A stretch of DNA of 40,066 nt from a virus, in the UHGV virus genome UHGV-0132701; one strand, given 5' to 3'. Shown here piece by piece: positions 1 through 37,179 of the stretch; positions within the stretch are counted from its first letter, which is position 1, and each line of letters starts with the position of its first letter. The notes below the pieces were generated by a model. It searched no databases. It had not been told where the DNA came from and worked only from the letters and a program-made list of their open reading frames with translations. Position numbers and translations under genes: made by a program.

Positions 1-176
1 CTGCAGGGGACACCATTTATCAGTTCGCTCCCATCCGCACCAGTCCGCAAAATCCCCTGAATATCAAGCCTTCCGTATATTCACGGTTCGTCATGGTTCG
101 CGTCAGATCGTTGACAGCCGCACACCATGACGGGTAAAAAGTGGATAAAATAATTTTACCCACCGGATTTTTACCC

Positions 177-1334
177 ATGCTCACCGTTAAGCAGATTGAA
201 GCAGCAAAGCCGAAAGAAAAACCATACCGCCTTCTCGATGGTAATGGCCTGTACCTTTATGTCCCTGTATCAGGGAAAAAGGTATGGCAGCTTCGCTACA
301 AGATTGACGGTAAGGAGAAAATCCTGACCGTCGGAAAATATCCGCTTATGACTTTGCAGGAGGCAAGGGATAAAGCATGGACCGCGAGGAAAGACATCTC
401 GGTTGGTATCGATCCGGTAAAAGCGAAAAAGGCTTCGTCTAACAACAATTCCTTTAGCGCCATTTACAAGGAATGGTACGAGCACAAGAAGCAAGTCTGG
501 TCAGTAGGCTATGCAAATGAACTTGCAAAAATGTTTGATGACGACATTTTACCTATCATCGGCGGCCTTGAAATTCAGGATATTGAGCCGATGCAACTGC
601 TGGAAGTAATCCGCAGATTTGAAGATCGCGGTGCAATGGAGCGAGCAAATAAAGCCCGCAGAAGATGCGGCGAGGTTTTCCGTTACGCTATTGTCACCGG
701 AAGGGCTAAATATAACCCGGCACCTGACCTTGCTGACGCCATGAAGGGATACCGCAAGAAGAACTTCCCGTTTCTTCCAGCAGACCATATCCCTGCATTT
801 AACAAAGCACTGACAACATTTTCAGGAAGTATCGTATCGCTCATTGCGACCAAAGTTTTACGCTACACAGCCCTAAGAACGAAAGAGCTTCGTTCCATGC
901 AATGGAAGAACGTCGATTTTGAAAACAGGATTATCACTATCGACGCCAGTGTGATGAAGGGACGCAAAATTCATGTGGTTCCTATGTCAGATCAGGTGAT
1001 TGAACTTCTCACTACGCTAAGCTCAATCACTAAACCAGTGTCAGAGTTTGTTTTTGCCGGGCGCAACGATAAGAAGAAGCCAATTTGCGAGAACGCTGTA
1101 CTACTTGTGATCAAACAAATCGGCTATGAAGGTCTGGAAAGCGGTCACGGATTCAGGCATGAATTCAGCACGATTATGAACGAGCACGAATGGCCTGCTG
1201 ACGCTATTGAAGTGCAACTGGCACATGCCAACGGCGGATCTGTGCGTGGGATTTACAACCATGCTCAGTATCTCGATAAGCGCAGAGAAATGATGCAGTG
1301 GTGGGCGGACTATCTAGACGGCAAGGTGGCGTAA
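177..1334 (+). CDS. intS: Tyrosine recombinase, P4-type phage integrase (IntS-like); ATG at 177 preferred over GTG at 141
   Basis: N-terminus MLTVKQIEAAKPKEKPYRLLDGNGLYL matches the arm-binding domain of P4-family integrases; C-terminal catalytic region has HGFRHEF and a GIYNHAQY tyrosine motif. Length 385 aa and sequence agree with my recollection of E. coli K-12 IntS (CPS-53, argW-associated); symbol from recall, not verified. Confidence 0.85.
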   Translation: MLTVKQIEAAKPKEKPYRLLDGNGLYLYVPVSGKKVWQLRYKIDGKEKILTVGKYPLMTLQEARDKAWTARKDISVGIDPVKAKKASSNNNSFSAIYKEWYEHKKQVWSVGYANELAKMFDDDILPIIGGLEIQDIEPMQLLEVIRRFEDRGAMERANKARRRCGEVFRYAIVTGRAKYNPAPDLADAMKGYRKKNFPFLPADHIPAFNKALTTFSGSIVSLIATKVLRYTALRTKELRSMQWKNVDFENRIITIDASVMKGRKIHVVPMSDQVIELLTTLSSITKPVSEFVFAGRNDKKKPICENAVLLVIKQIGYEGLESGHGFRHEFSTIMNEHEWPADAIEVQLAHANGGSVRGIYNHAQYLDKRREMMQWWADYLDGKVA

Positions 1335-1909: not shown

Positions 1910-2076
1910 TCCTTTTACCTGTTTTTATATACAGTAGTTTTAAAGTAGATTCAGATCAAGATGGCTAGGCCTATCAATGGAGCGACCATGAGATTTAGCA
2001 GTTTGCGAACGCCGCTCCTCCCTCAAGCGAAACCACCGTGATATATTTACGCCACACACACTATAAGGATCTTAAG

Positions 2077-3258
2077 ATGAAAGTTGCTGTTTTGATGATG
2101 CAAAAGGATGAGTACCGGCTTCTTGAGCCATGGATACTGCATCATGCTGAGCTTTTTGGCCTTGAAAATTTATACGTCTACGATAACGGGTCGGCAGATG
2201 AGCGATGCCTTAACGTTCTGAAGGAATATTCGGGAAAAGGGATGAATGTCGTTTATGACAGAAGCACCTTTGATGATTTCAATACCAGACATATCTACTT
2301 CGTAGACAAATACGAAGAATTAAAGAATTCTCATGGCTATGATTTTATGATGCCACTTGATTGTGATGAGTTTGTTGGCGTTGAGTTTTCAAAAGGCAAG
2401 GTGTCACTATCAAAAAATGATGTGTCGAATGAATTATCAAAATATATAGAAACCGATGCTACATTTAAAATTAAATATACATATGGCAACCACCCGCTTA
2501 ACCCAAAAGAATTTGTGCTAAGACCTAAACCTGAGAAAGTGTTCTTTCCTAAATCAAGAATAACTGCTCTGGGGAATGGTTTCCATCGCGGTGAAGTTGA
2601 GTCAGGACAACAGGTTGATACTGATATCATTTACCTTCACTTCCATCATAAAAACTATGATGACTATATCGCCAGCGCCCGTAATAAACTGGAAGGTCTT
2701 GTTGACGTTAATGATATTGAGGCTCTGAAGGCATTCAAAGGGGCGGGTCACCATTTAGTTAAAAAGTTCCTGATGACTCAGACCGAGTATTACGATATGC
2801 ATGCGGCTTCAAAGTCTATCAACCCGTCTAAGTTCTTTGTTATGGATGGCGTTTATGAATACCTGAAGGGTATAGGGCTGGATCTGGAGCAAACATTAAC
2901 TGTTGAACATGATGAAAGTCTAATAACATGGCATGGTTATGTAGACAAGGTGAGAGAAGATGATGGGTCATGCGTCTTCACGGGGTGGTGCTCTCCAAGC
3001 CTGAACGTTAATCAAGAGTTTTTTTTCCTGCGAGTAGGTCATGAAATACTCCCAGGATTCCTGGAGGGGAAAATACAGCGCTCAGATGTCGTAGCTAAAT
3101 TCCCTGATTACAATCTCCAGTGTGGTTTCTCTGTAAGATTCTACGGGGTAACAAAGGGCTCTTTGCAGCGCAATGAGTGGGAGTTTCACGTTTCTGCTGG
3201 TCACAAAGGTACTGGCTCAAAGCTAAACAGAAAGAAAAACGAATCATACTTCCAGTAA
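2077..3258 (+). CDS. GT-A fold (family 2-like) glycosyltransferase with about 150-aa C-terminal extension of unknown function; candidate lysogenic-conversion enzyme
   Basis: Motifs VAVLMMQKDE...LEPWILHH...LYVYDNGSADE and a DxD-like MPLDCDEF typical of GT-A nucleotide-sugar transferases. Markedly AT-rich relative to flanking DNA. RBS aaggat before the ATG at 2077 (in-frame ATG also at 2038). No obvious transmembrane segments. Confidence 0.6.
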   Translation: MKVAVLMMQKDEYRLLEPWILHHAELFGLENLYVYDNGSADERCLNVLKEYSGKGMNVVYDRSTFDDFNTRHIYFVDKYEELKNSHGYDFMMPLDCDEFVGVEFSKGKVSLSKNDVSNELSKYIETDATFKIKYTYGNHPLNPKEFVLRPKPEKVFFPKSRITALGNGFHRGEVESGQQVDTDIIYLHFHHKNYDDYIASARNKLEGLVDVNDIEALKAFKGAGHHLVKKFLMTQTEYYDMHAASKSINPSKFFVMDGVYEYLKGIGLDLEQTLTVEHDESLITWHGYVDKVREDDGSCVFTGWCSPSLNVNQEFFFLRVGHEILPGFLEGKIQRSDVVAKFPDYNLQCGFSVRFYGVTKGSLQRNEWEFHVSAGHKGTGSKLNRKKNESYFQ

Positions 3259-16030: not shown

Positions 16031-16552
16031 ATGAGCATGGAACTGAATGAATACTTCGAATACCGCGATGGTTCTTTGGTTTGGAAAGCCAGAAGCTCTG
16101 AATTTTTCAACAACAAAAAGAATCGCAACTATCACAACGTTTGGAATGCAAAACACGCTGGGAAAGTTGCTGGTCTTTTAGAAAGCAATGGATATATCCG
16201 CATAAGAATTAACGGCATTAAGTGGCTAGCACACCGCATCGTATGGGTAATGTTTAACGGAGATATTCCAGAAGGCATGGAAATTGACCATATAAATGGG
16301 ATTCGCCACGACAACAGAATTGAAAATCTTCGTCTTGTGAAAAAATCAGCAAACCAAAGGAATAGAATCAAACTATCTAAAAATAACTCCAGCGGAATAT
16401 CTGGAGTTTACTTTTGCAACACGCGGAAAAGATGGATCGCTCATAAGCGACTGCTTAATGCAAGAGTGCAAAAAGTATGTTCTTCATTCGAAGAGGCGAA
16501 AGAAGTAATCAGAAAGTTTGACGAGGAAAACAACATCACGATATCGAAATAA
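16031..16552 (+). CDS. HNH-family homing endonuclease with AP2-type DNA-binding region, free-standing insertion
   Basis: HNH motif IDHINGIRHDNRIENLRLV...N; AP2-like GVYF...RWIA; AT-rich; opposite strand to, and wedged between, the scaffold and coat genes. Confidence 0.8.
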   Translation: MSMELNEYFEYRDGSLVWKARSSEFFNNKKNRNYHNVWNAKHAGKVAGLLESNGYIRIRINGIKWLAHRIVWVMFNGDIPEGMEIDHINGIRHDNRIENLRLVKKSANQRNRIKLSKNNSSGISGVYFCNTRKRWIAHKRLLNARVQKVCSSFEEAKEVIRKFDEENNITISK

Positions 16553-32839: not shown

Positions 32840-33499
32840 ATGAAAATGAAATGGTATGAACTGGCTAGATCCAGAATGAAAGAGCTCGGCATAACTCAAG
32901 AGAAGTTGGCTGAAGAGCTTGGTATGACGCAGGGTGGAATTGGTCACTGGTTGCGCGGATCTCGTCATCCATCTCTTGACGAGATTGGTGTGGTGTTTAA
33001 ATACCTTGGTATTGATAACGTCTCATTCAACCACGACGGTACATTTTCACCTGTTGGCGAATACTCATCTGCCCCCGTTAAAAAACAATATGAGTACCCT
33101 GTTTTTTCTCATGTTCAGGCCGGGATGTTCTCGCCTGAGCTTAGAACCTTTACCAAAGGTGATGCGGAGAGATGGGTCAGCACAACCAAAAAAGCCAGTG
33201 ATTGTGCGTTTTGGCTTGAAGTTGAAGGTAATTCCATGACCGCACCAACAGGATCCAAGCCAAGCTTTCCTGACGGGATGTTAATTCTCGTTGACCCTGA
33301 GCAGGCTGTTGAGCCAGGTGATTTCTGCATAGCCAGACTTGGTGGTGACGAGTTTACCTTCAAGAAACTGATCAGGGATAGCGGTCAGGTGTTCCTACAG
33401 CCACTAAACCCGCAATATCCAATGATTCCATGCAATGATAGCTGTTCCGTAGTAGGGAAAGTTATCGCCAGCCAGTGGCCTGAAGAGACATTTAGTTAA
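32840..33499 (+). CDS. cI: CI repressor: S24 LexA-like autopeptidase domain identical in type to lambda CI, fused to a non-lambda N-terminal HTH domain
   Basis: C-terminal two-thirds ([134 protein letters not shown]) matches lambda CI; N-terminal domain ([37 protein letters not shown]) differs. Confidence 0.9.
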
Positions 33500-33530
33500 C
33501 AGCCTCACCACTCTAAAACACACAACAATA

Positions 33531-33559
33531 ACCCGACCTTAGCGTCGGGTTTTCTTTTT
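33531..33559 (+). terminator. Rho-independent terminator after cI
   Basis: CCCGAC-cttagc-GTCGGG hairpin followed by TTTTCTTTTT. Confidence 0.65.
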
Positions 33560-33624
33560 CCAAAATATAAACCCATTAAATACAAAGCGTTATAAAAAAC
33601 TAATTATATTTAGAACATTTTGTA

Positions 33625-33653
33625 TTGACTCGATAAAGTACAAATCGTACTAT
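33625..33653 (+). promoter_or_regulatory. Candidate pL promoter
   Basis: TTGACT (-35), 17-bp spacer, TACTAT (-10), oriented toward nutL and N; embedded in AT-rich operator-like DNA. Confidence 0.55.
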
Positions 33654-33693
33654 TTAGCCATCAGCAGGACGCACTAACCACCATTGAAGGTGA

Positions 33694-33724
33694 GGCTCTT
33701 AAAAATTTAGCCCTGAAGAAGGGC
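33694..33724 (+). promoter_or_regulatory. nutL antitermination site (boxA + boxB)
   Basis: GCTCTTAAAAA (boxA-like) followed by the lambda boxB hairpin GCCCTGAAGAAGGGC. Confidence 0.85.
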
Positions 33725-33992
33725 AGCATTCAAAGCAGAAGGCTTTGGGGTGTGGTGAAGCCAGCTAGTCACTGGCAAGTGCTTACCTACTGTTGAGCGG
33801 TGAAGCGCTCCCAACGCTAGCAATAGCGTGGACGAGATGGGGAGCCGCGGGCGATAAGGCCGCCATAACGCGCACGTTGTCGCATGGAAAAATCACTGGG
33901 GTGCCGGTTATACCCCTCCGAATGAGACTCAACAAGCTGGAGCTAGACTACCAGCCACCACACCACCAAAGCTAACTGACAGGAGAATCCAG

Positions 33993-34325
33993 ATGGATGC
34001 ACAAACACGCCGCCGCGAACGTCGCGCAGAGAAACAGGCTCAATGGAAAGCAGCAAATCCCCTGTTGGTTGGGGTAAGCGCAAAACCAGTTAACCGCCCT
34101 ATTCTCTCGCTGAATCGCAAACCGAAATCACGAGTAGAAAGCGCACTGAATCCGATAGACCTTACGGTGCTGGCTGAATACCACGAACAGATTGAAAGCA
34201 ACCTGCAACGTATTGAGCGCAAGAATCAGCGCACATGGTACAGCAAGCCACGCAGTGAAATGGGTGTGACTTGTGTTGGTCGCCAGAAAATGAAATTAGG
34301 CAGCAAACCACTGTATGAGGGGTGA
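33993..34325 (+). CDS. N: Antitermination protein N (lambda type)
   Basis: MDAQTRRRERRAEKQAQWKAANPLLVGVSAKPVNRPILSLNRKPKSRVESALNPIDLTVLAEY... matches lambda N including the arginine-rich boxB-binding motif. Confidence 0.95.
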   Translation: MDAQTRRRERRAEKQAQWKAANPLLVGVSAKPVNRPILSLNRKPKSRVESALNPIDLTVLAEYHEQIESNLQRIERKNQRTWYSKPRSEMGVTCVGRQKMKLGSKPLYEG

Positions 34326-34717
34326 ATTATGGCGTCGAACGGAATGCCGAAATGCGGGAACTGAGTTTAACCAAACAGGAGGTGCCGTAATGGTGCACTA
34401 ACGCGGTTAGACCGCAGCCGAAAGGCAATGCAGCAGTAATGATGCTGCCCCGAGTCGCGTAATGGCGAGCAGGTTTAGCAGACCGATGTGAGGGTAAATA
34501 AGGGAACATGCTCCGGAAAGGCAGCGCGAATGCCAGACGCGCACCGGTTATCAGCGGCTAATAAGCGACAGAGACTCAAGGGCATGAGCGCGCTCACTGC
34601 GAGAGTGTGAGTCAAAGAGTAGTTGGCTTTGGGGTGACGTGAAGTGCAGCTGCACGACGGCAACCGGAAGATAAGCAGCCGGCGCGTCACCGCCAAAGTC
34701 AATCATCGGAGGTCAAC

Positions 34718-34990
34718 ATGACAGTAGTCATTACATATCTGGCTGACGATAACGCCAGAAATCGCCGCAGAGCACGCAGACAGGCTCAACGTGAGCAGGC
34801 AATGCAAGAACAGCGACTGGCGCGAAAAATTGCGCTAAAGCTCTCTGGTTGCGTCAGAGCAGACAAAGCAGCATCACTCGGAAGCCTTCGCTGCAAGAAG
34901 GCAGAAGAATGCAGTGGAAGTATTTGCCTGCCAAACGTAGCCATTTACGCGGCAGGATACCGGAAATCAAAACAACTGACGGCGAGGTAA
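34718..34990 (+). CDS. Hypothetical protein (90 aa) with arginine-rich N-terminal segment
   Basis: Six-frame ORF in the pL operon; RNRRRARRQAQREQ segment; coding status uncertain. Confidence 0.3.
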   Translation: MTVVITYLADDNARNRRRARRQAQREQAMQEQRLARKIALKLSGCVRADKAASLGSLRCKKAEECSGSICLPNVAIYAAGYRKSKQLTAR

Positions 34991-35218
34991 GTGATGAATC
35001 AGACATACATTCCATCATGCTTGAGAAATCTGCCAAAGCAGAAAGCAAAGCCCCGCAAGCAAGCCATAAAGGACGCTAAGGCAGAGGTTATTGATCAAGC
35101 AATACAATTGCTCAGGGAGGAGTTAAGAAGTGGCAAGCTCGAAGGAATGATGATGCCCTATCAGCGCGGATATCTATCGGCGATTAGTAAGTTGGAAGTA
35201 TTGAAGAGTGAATTATGA
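34991..35218 (+). CDS. Hypothetical protein (75 aa)
   Basis: ORF immediately following and coupled to the previous one; no recognised motif. Confidence 0.3.
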   Translation: MMNQTYIPSCLRNLPKQKAKPRKQAIKDAKAEVIDQAIQLLREELRSGKLEGMMMPYQRGYLSAISKLEVLKSEL

Positions 35219-35280
35219 ACTATCTGGAATTTCCGGATGGTTCATTGTTTTGGCAGCAAGCCACTTATTTGAGGTGAGAT

Positions 35281-35751
35281 ATGACAAAATCATGGAGCGT
35301 ACCTTTTCCTGAATCAGAAACTGAACATGATGGAATGCCTGTTTTCTGGAGATTCCAGGCGACAGTTGAAGAAGATGGAATCAAAATATTCGCACTTCAA
35401 TATATAGCTTTTCATCAGACAGAGCATTATGCATGGTTGGTTCCTGCGCATTGGATTGTTAATTTTAAACCAGCACCAAATCAGTGGTTACAGGAATGGA
35501 AACAAAAGAGAAATAGATATGCAATTAAGAAAGTAGCAAAAAATGCAGAAAGATCTTTTGCATTCCCAACGAAGAAACTTGCCATTGAAAGTTTATTGCG
35601 CCGGAAGAAATACCATTTAATGAGAATCAAACAAGATTTGGCTGTTGTATCAACTCTTGTTGATGGGATGAAGAATATTGATACATCAACACCAGATATT
35701 GAATATAACTTTGGACACAACCAAGAAACAGAAAATTGGGTATTTTATTAG
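35281..35751 (+). CDS. Hypothetical AT-rich moron protein (156 aa) in the N-to-cIII interval
   Basis: RBS gaggtgagat before ATG; strongly AT-rich codon usage unlike neighbours; followed by its own strong terminator; occupies the ral/sieB-type accessory slot of lambdoid phages. Confidence 0.55.
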   Translation: MTKSWSVPFPESETEHDGMPVFWRFQATVEEDGIKIFALQYIAFHQTEHYAWLVPAHWIVNFKPAPNQWLQEWKQKRNRYAIKKVAKNAERSFAFPTKKLAIESLLRRKKYHLMRIKQDLAVVSTLVDGMKNIDTSTPDIEYNFGHNQETENWVFY

Positions 35752-35855
35752 TACAAATAAGCACTGTGTATTCATTCCAACGAGTGAATACACGGAGCAA
35801 TGTCGCTCGTAACTAAACAGGAGCCGACTTGTTCTGATTATTGGAAATCTTCTTT

Positions 35856-35880
35856 GCCCTCTAATGTGAGGGCCTTTTTA
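35856..35880 (+). terminator. Rho-independent terminator after the AT-rich moron
   Basis: GCCCTC-taatgt-GAGGGC hairpin followed by CTTTTTA. Confidence 0.65.
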
Positions 35881-35945
35881 TATGCATACCAATAACGCTT
35901 CACTCGAGGCGTTTTCGTTATGCAATCAAATATAAGGAGTTACCC

Positions 35946-36080
35946 ATGATGCACTTTCAGCTCGCGGGTAGCGGCGTCATGTCCGCTTTCTACCCGCACG
36001 AATCTGAATTATCACGCCGGGTTAAACAATTAATCAGAGCAGCAAAGAAACAACTGGAGGCGTTATGCGCAATGAAATAG
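35946..36080 (+). CDS. cIII-like small protein (44 aa), candidate FtsH inhibitor; not in ORF track
   Basis: Strong RBS taaggag; translation MMHFQLAGSGVMSAFYPHESELSRRVKQLIRAAKKQLEALCAMK shows the AG..SESEL.R..K.L pattern resembling lambda/P22 CIII; position matches. Confidence 0.45.
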   Translation: MMHFQLAGSGVMSAFYPHESELSRRVKQLIRAAKKQLEALCAMK

Positions 36081-36217
36081 CCATTAATCACCAGATGCTT
36101 CGTGCTGCACAGAACAAAGCAGTAATAGCCAGATTTATTGGTGATTCAAAAATGTGGCTTGAAGCAAATAAAGCGATGAAATCAGCTATCAACCTTCCGT
36201 GGTATCGCAGGAAATGA
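36065..36217 (+). CDS. Small hypothetical protein (50 aa), kil position; not in ORF track
   Basis: RBS GGAGG; overlaps upstream stop; translation MRNEIAINHQMLRAAQNKAVIARFIGDSKMWLEANKAMKSAINLPWYRRK. Confidence 0.35.
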   Translation: MRNEIAINHQMLRAAQNKAVIARFIGDSKMWLEANKAMKSAINLPWYRRK

Positions 36218-36372
36218 GTTTTACAGATAACTGGTCAGACGAAGAATTCATTCGTCAGATGAAAGAATTAATCGGTAACGAAGGAGATATTCATGTCACT
36301 TGCAACCACAGTGAAGGAGAGCAAGTTACAGAGAAGCATGTACACGCAGAAAGCTCTCTGGTATCGCCATAA
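36214..36372 (+). CDS. Small hypothetical acidic protein (52 aa); not in ORF track
   Basis: ATGA overlap with upstream ORF; translation MSFTDNWSDEEFIRQMKELIGNEGDIHVTCNHSEGEQVTEKHVHAESSLVSP. Confidence 0.3.
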   Translation: MSFTDNWSDEEFIRQMKELIGNEGDIHVTCNHSEGEQVTEKHVHAESSLVSP

Positions 36373-36471
36373 TGGTGACCGCGAAGGAATGCGGGTATGC
36401 CTTAATTTGTCCAGAGTCGAAGTATTAAATCAGCGTTATTTCCTTGGGCCGTGTCCATTCTGAGGTGAATT

Positions 36472-37179
36472 ATGGATTTGAACAAATTCGATGAGCCATT
36501 CAGCCCTGAAGATATCGAATGGCGAATACAGCAAAGCGGTAAAACACGCGATGGCAAGGTGTGGGCTATGGTGCTGGCTTATGTCACGAACCGGGCAATC
36601 ATGAAGCGCCTGGACGATGTTTGCGGCAAAGCAGGATGGCGCAATGAATACCGCGATATTCCCAACAACGGCGGAGTTGAATGCGGCATATCAATCAAGA
36701 TTGATTCCGAATGGGTAACCAAATGGGATGCTGCTGAAAACACGCAGGTAGAAGCCGTCAAAGGTGGTCGTTCCGGTGCAATGAAGCGCGCTGCCGTTCA
36801 GTGGGGAATCGGTCGGTATCTGTATAACCTTGAGGAAGGTTTCGCACAAACATCTCTCGATAAAAAGCAGGGATGGCACAGGGCAAAACTCAAGGATGGA
36901 ACAGGATTTTACTGGCTCCCTCCATCGCTGCCGGGATGGGCAATCCCAGCATCAGATAACAAACCATCACCAGAAAATACCAACCAGAAATCTCCATCGG
37001 TTGACTGCGAACAAATCCTGAAAGACTTCAGCGATTATGCATCAACAGAAACTGACAAGAAAAAACTCATCGAGCGTTATCAGCGTGACTGGCAATTAAT
37101 GGCTGGCAACGAGGAGGCGCAGGCTAAATGCGTTCAGGTAATGAACATCAGAGTTAACGAACTAAAACAGGCGGCATAA
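36472..37179 (+). CDS. Single-strand annealing protein, Rad52/22 family (Sak-type recombinase)
   Basis: Motif GAMKRAAVQWGIGRYLYNL and upstream GISIKIDSEWVTKWDAAEN typical of Rad52-family annealases; followed directly by ssb. Confidence 0.75.
   Translation: MDLNKFDEPFSPEDIEWRIQQSGKTRDGKVWAMVLAYVTNRAIMKRLDDVCGKAGWRNEYRDIPNNGGVECGISIKIDSEWVTKWDAAENTQVEAVKGGRSGAMKRAAVQWGIGRYLYNLEEGFAQTSLDKKQGWHRAKLKDGTGFYWLPPSLPGWAIPASDNKPSPENTNQKSPSVDCEQILKDFSDYASTETDKKKLIERYQRDWQLMAGNEEAQAKCVQVMNIRVNELKQAA

Follow-up and report, generated by a model that had tools for sequence, protein, structure and literature searches.

An AT-rich early gene of a lambdoid prophage lies between two conserved boundaries of the pL operon, of which the right one corresponds to the PreS/tL2a region of lambda

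The morons of phage HK97, as reportedly set out by Juhala et al. 2000, are inserted genes of deviant base composition that bring their own promoter and terminator and are expressed from the prophage. In lambda, the slot with which we are concerned here is occupied by ral, a gene for restriction alleviation, and at the level of RNA the enterobacteria possess Hfq-associated sRNAs that derive from the 3' UTRs of mRNAs, e.g. CpxQ, SroC and DapZ. A further Hfq-dependent sRNA, LPR1 or PreS, is encoded by the lambda ral-ea10 spacer; it is ~88 nt long, is processed to ~68 nt, has its 3' end at the terminator tL2a and is found in the lytic cycle only, being undetectable in lysogens (10.1101/2024.10.31.621285). 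In lambda, PreS activates the translation of dnaN and represses alaS, and both the replication of the phage DNA and the phage yield benefit from it (10.1101/2024.10.31.621285; review PMC12197685), and its loss lowers the phage yield 2- to 4-fold (10.1101/2024.10.31.621285). The protein-coding gene treated below is itself a catalogued one, as it belongs to the family of HK97 gp45 (NP_037731.1), 933W L0079 (AAD25424.1, NP_049479.1) and orf57 of the Stx2-converting phage 86 (Stx2-86), i.e. PHROG 1636; a literature search by gene name, accession, locus tag and operon position found nothing on the HK97 gp45/L0079 protein.

The window, i.e. the whole stretch of 40,066 nucleotides that was analysed, is a P22/Sf6-like lambdoid prophage, with its structural module on the minus strand, its immunity region near 32-33.5 kb and its early-left operon on the plus strand from about 33.6 kb on (Table 1). 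The operon is likely to be driven by the pL-like promoter and antiterminated via nutL: the region that holds both (33625-33728) is 95.8% identical to its lambda counterpart and N matches lambda N at 93% nucleotide identity (both blastn). Beyond kil, the same operon continues with genes for a Rad52-type recombinase and an SSB. The original prediction placed an AT-rich 156-aa ORF in this operon between N and a cIII-like gene, and both the gene order and the shared boundaries locate it there, in the slot of lambda orf28/ral. We show that the ORF lies between two conserved boundaries, of which the left one supplies the Shine-Dalgarno sequence and the ATG, and the right one is the PreS gene ending in tL2a. 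Of this anatomy we are highly confident.

Table 1. Features of the window that are discussed in the text
Feature	Positions	Strand	Evidence or remark
Integrase	141-1334		
pL-like promoter, TTGACT-17-TACTAT	33625-33653	+	promoter scan
Lambda-type nutL, boxA GCTCTTAAAAA, boxB GCCCTGAAGAAGGGC	33695-33728	+	sequence
Lambda-type antiterminator N, 110 aa	33993-34325	+	Pfam N36 1.6e-26
Second N-type gene, 90 aa, HK620/phi367-type	34718-34990	+	PF25694 7.7e-16; phrog_271
75-aa ORF	34991-35218	+	phrog_5305 (PHROG 5305)
Strong hairpin over the stop codon of the 75-aa ORF, then UGUUUUGG	35215-35245	+	14-pair stem
Left boundary GCAGCAAGCCACTTATTTGAGGTGAGATATG with Shine-Dalgarno 35271-35276 and start codon	35253-35283	+	alignment, blastn
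156-aa ORF	35281-35751	+	ATG start
Perfect 12-bp hairpin immediately 5' of PreS	35766-35793	+	within 35761-35794, start of the right block
PreS (LPR1) homologue	35795-35880	+	identity to lambda LPR1 reconstructed from cloning primers
tL2a equivalent: hairpin 35856-35873 and U5 35875-35879		+	Sf6 annotation, PreS preprint
Second terminator-like hairpin, core 35894-35913 then UUUCGUUA, in a longer stem	35883-35924	+	
cIII	35946-36080	+	Pfam cIII 2e-30
kil	36065-36217	+	Pfam Lambda_Kil 1.7e-20

The ORF is intact and differs in composition from its neighbours as had been predicted: it has 35.7% GC where the window averages 48.0%, an AT-richness matched by only 0.2% of all 471-nt windows, and the GC minimum of the whole window falls inside it. 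The good ribosome-binding site noted earlier is the Shine-Dalgarno sequence GAGGTG, which precedes the ATG by 4 nt and matches the anti-Shine-Dalgarno sequence over 6 nt. A comparison with six diverged homologues from other genera yielded saturated synonymous differences (pS 0.68-1.0) against a pN of 0.17-0.30, with a dN/dS of ~0.15 where this was computable, and such a pattern of substitutions, read from aligned sequences, shows a real gene under strong purifying selection. The other frames and the other strand of the ORF hold no open stretch that is conserved among the homologues; an antisense or overlapping gene was rejected on that ground, and a promoter-like site on the minus strand (35770-35742) is within chance expectation.

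In the case of the encoded protein, a remote-homology search, which had been proposed as a check, retrieved a full-length match to phrog_1636 (E 5.4e-112, residues 1-156 on profile positions 1-156 of 156). The protein is identical to the product of an unannotated ORF of H-19B (100%) and nearly so to 933W L0079 (99.4%), to the products of many Stx1/Stx2 phage ORFs (likewise 99.4%) and to HK97 gp45 (98.7%). With HK97, 933W and phage 86 the likeness thus extends over all 156 residues (98-100% amino acid identity) as well as to the position after N and before a tL2a-type terminator and cIII; where they differ is the interval from N to the cassette, in which the window has an additional N-type gene and a 75-aa ORF. 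The exact protein occurs on at least 1000 public contigs, where its name is always 'hypothetical' or 'prophage protein', and the DNA of the ORF was found at 835 places in 598 of 5426 complete E. coli genomes (about 11%). Close relatives (55-85% identity) are confined to the Enterobacterales, namely Cronobacter, Pectobacterium, Brenneria, Rosenbergiella and a Salmonella phage, and a profile search among 1.84 billion representatives recovered 88 proteins at E <= 0.001, mostly of 130-165 aa and contained in PHROGs 13631 and 25384. The statement that the protein has no recognisable motif held: none of 79 family members has a Pfam domain, and neither the single protein nor the 79-member profile found anything significant in Pfam, NCBIfam, PADLOC or the PDB sequences.

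The homologues in other genera are always co-oriented within early operons, where they are located between N and cIII, upstream of recT/yqaJ/ssb or upstream of xis-int, and more distant homologues occur among the small early genes of Vibrio, Pantoea and Klebsiella phages. A setting unlike the N-cIII slot was observed in two metagenomic phage contigs (L011 4001-5298 and L012 2083-3380), in which a homologue of 64% identity opens a divergent early block and is directly followed by a ParB-like HTH protein (PF17762).

Comparative genomics of the N-to-cIII interval, again a check that had been suggested, bore out the variability of the cargo and at the same time revealed that the ribosome-binding site and the terminator are shared boundaries. 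The left boundary, GCAGCAA(A/G)CCACTTATTTGAGGTGAGATATG, precedes 933W L0079, ECs_1180 of Sakai Sp5 and orf28/ral in Sf6 and lambda. ECs_1180 encodes 83 aa and is unrelated to the 156-aa ORF; indeed, the occupants of the slot are mutually unrelated (hhalign probability <1% against Sf6 gp34, ECs_1180, mEp213 gp45 and Ral), as a consequence of which these slot-mates were rejected as distant homologues. The cassette of lambda and Sf6 therefore has the left SD/ATG block, the right PreS/tL2a block, the strand and the operon in common with that of the window, whereas lambda orf28/ral and the 156-aa protein are alike neither in sequence nor in profile (hhalign probability 0.1% for Ral). Because the same boundaries surround unrelated cargo, the slot between the left boundary and PreS can be viewed as a recombinational cassette site. 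Cargo can also be stacked: phi367 carries ral and then the 156-aa ORF, and since it has both, the two need not be functional alternatives.

Several observations concern the stretch between N and the left boundary. Two unlike N-type genes stand in tandem in one pL operon, the first of the N36 type (33993-34325) and the second of the PF25694 type (34718-34990), and the lambda-type nutL was the only nut site recognised for the two; mEp213 has the same N pair (gp51 and gp47). The second N-type gene and the 75-aa ORF, which lie between N and the cassette, recur as a pair in phi367 and mEp213. The post-N boundary, GCAGCAAaCCACT...GAGGTGA..ATG, is present twice, as a degenerate copy after the first N (34296-34331) and as the intact copy in front of the 156-aa ORF, so that the copies flank the second N and the 75-aa ORF; the degenerate copy suggests that this pair entered by recombination at the boundary sequence. 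The hairpin over the stop codon of the 75-aa ORF (-22.8 kcal/mol, z = -4.9) stands shortly before the cassette and could act as a terminator or an RNase/processing site; it is common to phi367- and mEp213-type phages and is found neither in 933W nor in HK97.

On the right side, the original prediction had seen a strong terminator belonging to the gene itself. The hairpin is there, with a stem of 6 bp (35856-35861/35868-35873) that includes 5 GC pairs, a loop of 6 nt, a C at 35874 and then five U residues. A terminator scan of 33400-36600 returned 7 sites, where shuffles gave 3.2 +/- 2.2, and the pattern is therefore of little weight by itself; what makes the terminator at 35856-35879 a solid one is its homology to the experimentally defined terminator of lambda. 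It is the ownership that does not stand. The hairpin sits in a block of 123 nt (35761-35883) that is about 96% identical to the lambda ral-ea10 spacer and 96-99% identical in pairwise blastn among lambda, Sf6, 933W, H-19B, HK97 and Sakai Sp5, and it is present in these phages with or without the 156-aa ORF. An alignment with lambda, Sf6, 933W and H-19B is almost invariant over the stretch that starts at 35761 and closes with the hairpin. In the Sf6 annotation the block carries the label 'bsq4, boundary sequence' and the hairpin at its 3' end is called 'tL2A, homology to phage lambda', and the HK97 record marks the block as 'terminator, putative'. Of 327 phage records that match 35219-35880, 78 have the ORF and the rest mainly match the last ~120-180 nt. 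As judged by homology, the hairpin is thus the conserved tL2a of lambda and would form the 3' end of PreS.

The limits of PreS as used here are those of the primers with which its authors cloned and transcribed it in vitro (P810/P1103). Positions 1-67 of the 88 nt in lambda are identical in the window, including both northern-probe sites, of which that of probe P843 corresponds exactly to 35822-35855, and the seed TTGTTCTGATTATTGGAAATCTTC (35829-35852), which covers the bases altered in LPR1-M1/M2 and the 18-nt seed deletion. Seed, GC hairpin with U tail and position in the pL operon upstream of cIII agree with lambda, and we consider the window's copy a putative Hfq-bound homologue of the sRNA. 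The differences from lambda are restricted to the terminator loop and tail, i.e. two loop changes (CAG -> TAA), another base pair after the stem and a tail of U5 where lambda has U6; further, the upstream gene is ral in lambda and the 156-aa ORF here, and ea10 is absent downstream in the window. With the 3'-UTR-derived CpxQ, SroC and DapZ, PreS shares the use of an mRNA's intrinsic terminator directly behind a coding sequence and, in lambda, the existence of a shorter processed form (68 nt from 88 nt). The PreS/tL2a block was found at 3193 places in 2234 of the 5426 complete E. coli genomes (41%), about four times the 835 places of the ORF, and, among the E. coli matches listed, no annotated feature lies beneath it; it is unannotated in RefSeq. 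PreS is not in Rfam 15, of which no family reached its gathering score over the whole window; a relaxed search (E up to 5) over 33400-36300 gave two chance miRNA matches only.

The perfect hairpin in front of PreS lies outside the primer-delimited sRNA, is invariant in lambda, Sf6, 933W and H-19B and is part of the minimum free energy fold of 35752-35880 (z = -5.9); it may act as a processing signal or stabilise the upstream mRNA at its 3' end. Only ~15 nt past tL2a and directly upstream of the cIII ribosome-binding site there is a second terminator-like hairpin (fold of 35850-35925: -28.9 kcal/mol, z = -6.2). Its sequence (35884-35922) is 97.5% identical to lambda just upstream of cIII, and it is presumably the tL2b region of the lambda map. 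With ea10 missing from the window, these terminators stand back to back, as in HK97.

As the region is devoid of a promoter of its own, as far as could be detected, it is better described as a pL-operon cassette than as an autonomous moron. A consensus scan, which is a weak test of promoters, found no sigma-70-like site on the plus strand of 35219-35280, and over 3.2 kb it gave 3 such sites against 5.1 in shuffles. The designation as a moron accordingly survives only in the deviant base composition (0.2 percentile): an own promoter and an own terminator were not found, and the ribosome-binding site is shared boundary sequence. Like the HK97 morons, the locus is of deviant, AT-rich composition and holds a variable gene flanked by conserved ones; it differs from them in that no own promoter was detected, that terminator and ribosome-binding site are shared elements of the operon and that the slot is always filled by some cargo and never empty in relatives. 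That the region is one exchangeable pL-operon cassette instead of an autonomous moron is the description that we favour, with some reservation.

By analogy with lambda, the expression of such a cassette would probably proceed along the following lines, in support of which the absence of a plus-strand promoter-like site upstream and the co-orientation of the homologues within early operons can be named. In the lysogen, pL would be repressed and the 156-aa gene silent. After induction or infection, transcription from pL would pass nutL and N and reach the ORF, which would be translated from the shared ribosome-binding site as a delayed-early protein. Polymerases that lack the N modification would be halted by tL2a and by the second hairpin (35894-35913), and the transcripts that end at tL2a would carry PreS as their 3' UTR, to be trimmed to the Hfq-bound sRNA, while N-modified polymerase would proceed into cIII, kil and the recombination genes. 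The earlier claim that the terminator must be read through in an N-dependent manner is in line with this, since cIII, kil and the recombination genes are located beyond it.

The protein has a mass of 18.6 kDa and a pI of 9.0 (9.05); it is soluble and basic, has no membrane segment, and carries 18 K/R against 5 D/E in its centre (residues 61-131). Structure prediction, which like the homology search had been named as a check, produced a confident AF2 model (pLDDT 95.7, pTM 0.83), yet the comparison with solved structures returned no structural neighbour, and so no solved anti-defence or defence protein that resembles it. According to the model, the protein would consist of a small beta-sheet domain, the basic central segment and a helix of 33 residues. 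Over 63 distant members, basic or polar residues are conserved at R24, E/Q46, T47, K87, R91/92, R108 and K109, and these positions suggest a binding function related to nucleic acids. A reading of H45-Q46-T47 as part of a 2H-phosphoesterase (HxT) or a GIY-YIG motif was dropped, as the protein lacks the second motif and has no structural match.

The protein may bind nucleic acid, or a host protein that handles it, during early lytic growth, and its role could then be one of host takeover or counter-defence, like that of its slot-mates, and not one of lysogen protection; the early-operon placement of the homologues favours a function that serves the phage in early lytic growth. Our best guess ranks such a host-directed role before that of an accessory factor directed at the phage itself, and the latter before a moron that protects the lysogen. 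Even the first of these, i.e. binding of a host nucleic acid or of an enzyme acting on it for the sake of takeover or counter-defence, is put forward tentatively, as the leading candidate among several. A small DNA- or RNA-binding factor that assists the transcription, replication or recombination of the phage or its lysis-lysogeny decision is unlikely by our estimate. In a true moron, the gene would be expressed in the prophage from an AT-rich promoter that escaped detection and would protect the lysogen by exclusion or abortive infection in the way of lambda sieB/rex or HK97 gp15. The foreign composition with the lowest GC of the window, the presence of sieB in the same neighbourhood of lambda and the wide distribution of the gene in prophages are as such a reading would have them. 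We nevertheless judge it quite improbable: upstream of the gene there is no promoter-like site on the coding strand, terminator and ribosome-binding site are shared boundary elements that are not specific for the cassette, the sole PADLOC match (Cas1_II, E 0.0097, 13 bits) is spurious, and the protein is a soluble, basic one without a membrane segment. Moreover, distant relatives are located in early blocks, including that of the 74.7-kb Pantoea phage LIET2, where lysogen protection is unlikely, and the fact that PreS is undetectable in lambda lysogens implies that nothing strong reads into the region in the prophage there.

The alternative at the level of RNA, by which the mRNA of the ORF would serve mainly as carrier or precursor of PreS with the protein as dispensable cargo, draws on proximity: the conserved block begins 10 nt, and PreS 44 nt, past the stop codon, and ORF and PreS are contiguous in 78 of the ~85 phage records that have the ORF. 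It is very hard to reconcile with the strong purifying selection on the protein, which keeps 55-85% identity in genera whose phages have no PreS, and with the function of PreS in lambda behind a different gene, and we give it hardly any weight. The two elements are also found apart: lambda, Sf6 and Sp5 have PreS but not the ORF, and Pectobacterium, Brenneria, Cronobacter, Rosenbergiella and metagenomic phages have the ORF but not PreS. Because the homologues outside the phages of E. coli and Shigella lack PreS, ORF and terminator/sRNA can be regarded as independent modules that happen to lie side by side. Returning to the host-directed role, a bolder version of it, which we think rather unlikely to hold in full, would see in the protein the most populous branch of a so far unrecognised early-protein family (PHROGs 1636, 13631 and 25384) that has a fold without solved relative; the protein would act in counter-defence or takeover by binding a host nucleic acid or an enzyme of nucleic acids, and its mRNA would also be the precursor of PreS. 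If true, the HK97-/933W-type phages would obtain two effectors, one a protein and one an RNA, from a single cassette as soon as lytic growth begins.

Nothing at 35219-35880 is a new kind of element: the ORF is catalogued (HK97 gp45, 933W L0079), the terminator is that of lambda tL2a/PreS and the flanks are boundary sequences that have been noted before. The main correction to the original prediction concerns the 'terminator': what was so called is the gene for the sRNA PreS, found in 41% of the complete E. coli genomes. This has a practical side, as 35761-35880 must stay intact when the ORF is deleted or cloned, since loss of PreS would otherwise confound the phenotype. The 156-aa gene itself comes after N at the beginning of the early-left operon in the Shiga-toxin phages 933W and H-19B and in the model phage HK97, and its presence in ~11% of the complete E. 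coli genomes, together with a predicted fold that is unmatched, makes it a reasonable and cheap target for a knockout or an expression screen.

Elsewhere in the window, an AT-rich ORF of 173 aa (16031-16552, plus strand) lies inside the minus-strand structural block, in the opposite direction, and encodes an HNH_3 endonuclease (Pfam 3.9e-22), so that a homing endonuclease has probably inserted there. The window's other AT-rich island holds an ORF of 406 aa (2038-3258, plus strand) beside the integrase gene that resembles family-2 glycosyltransferases (PF13704, 2.1e-08) and looks like a cargo gene for O-antigen conversion.
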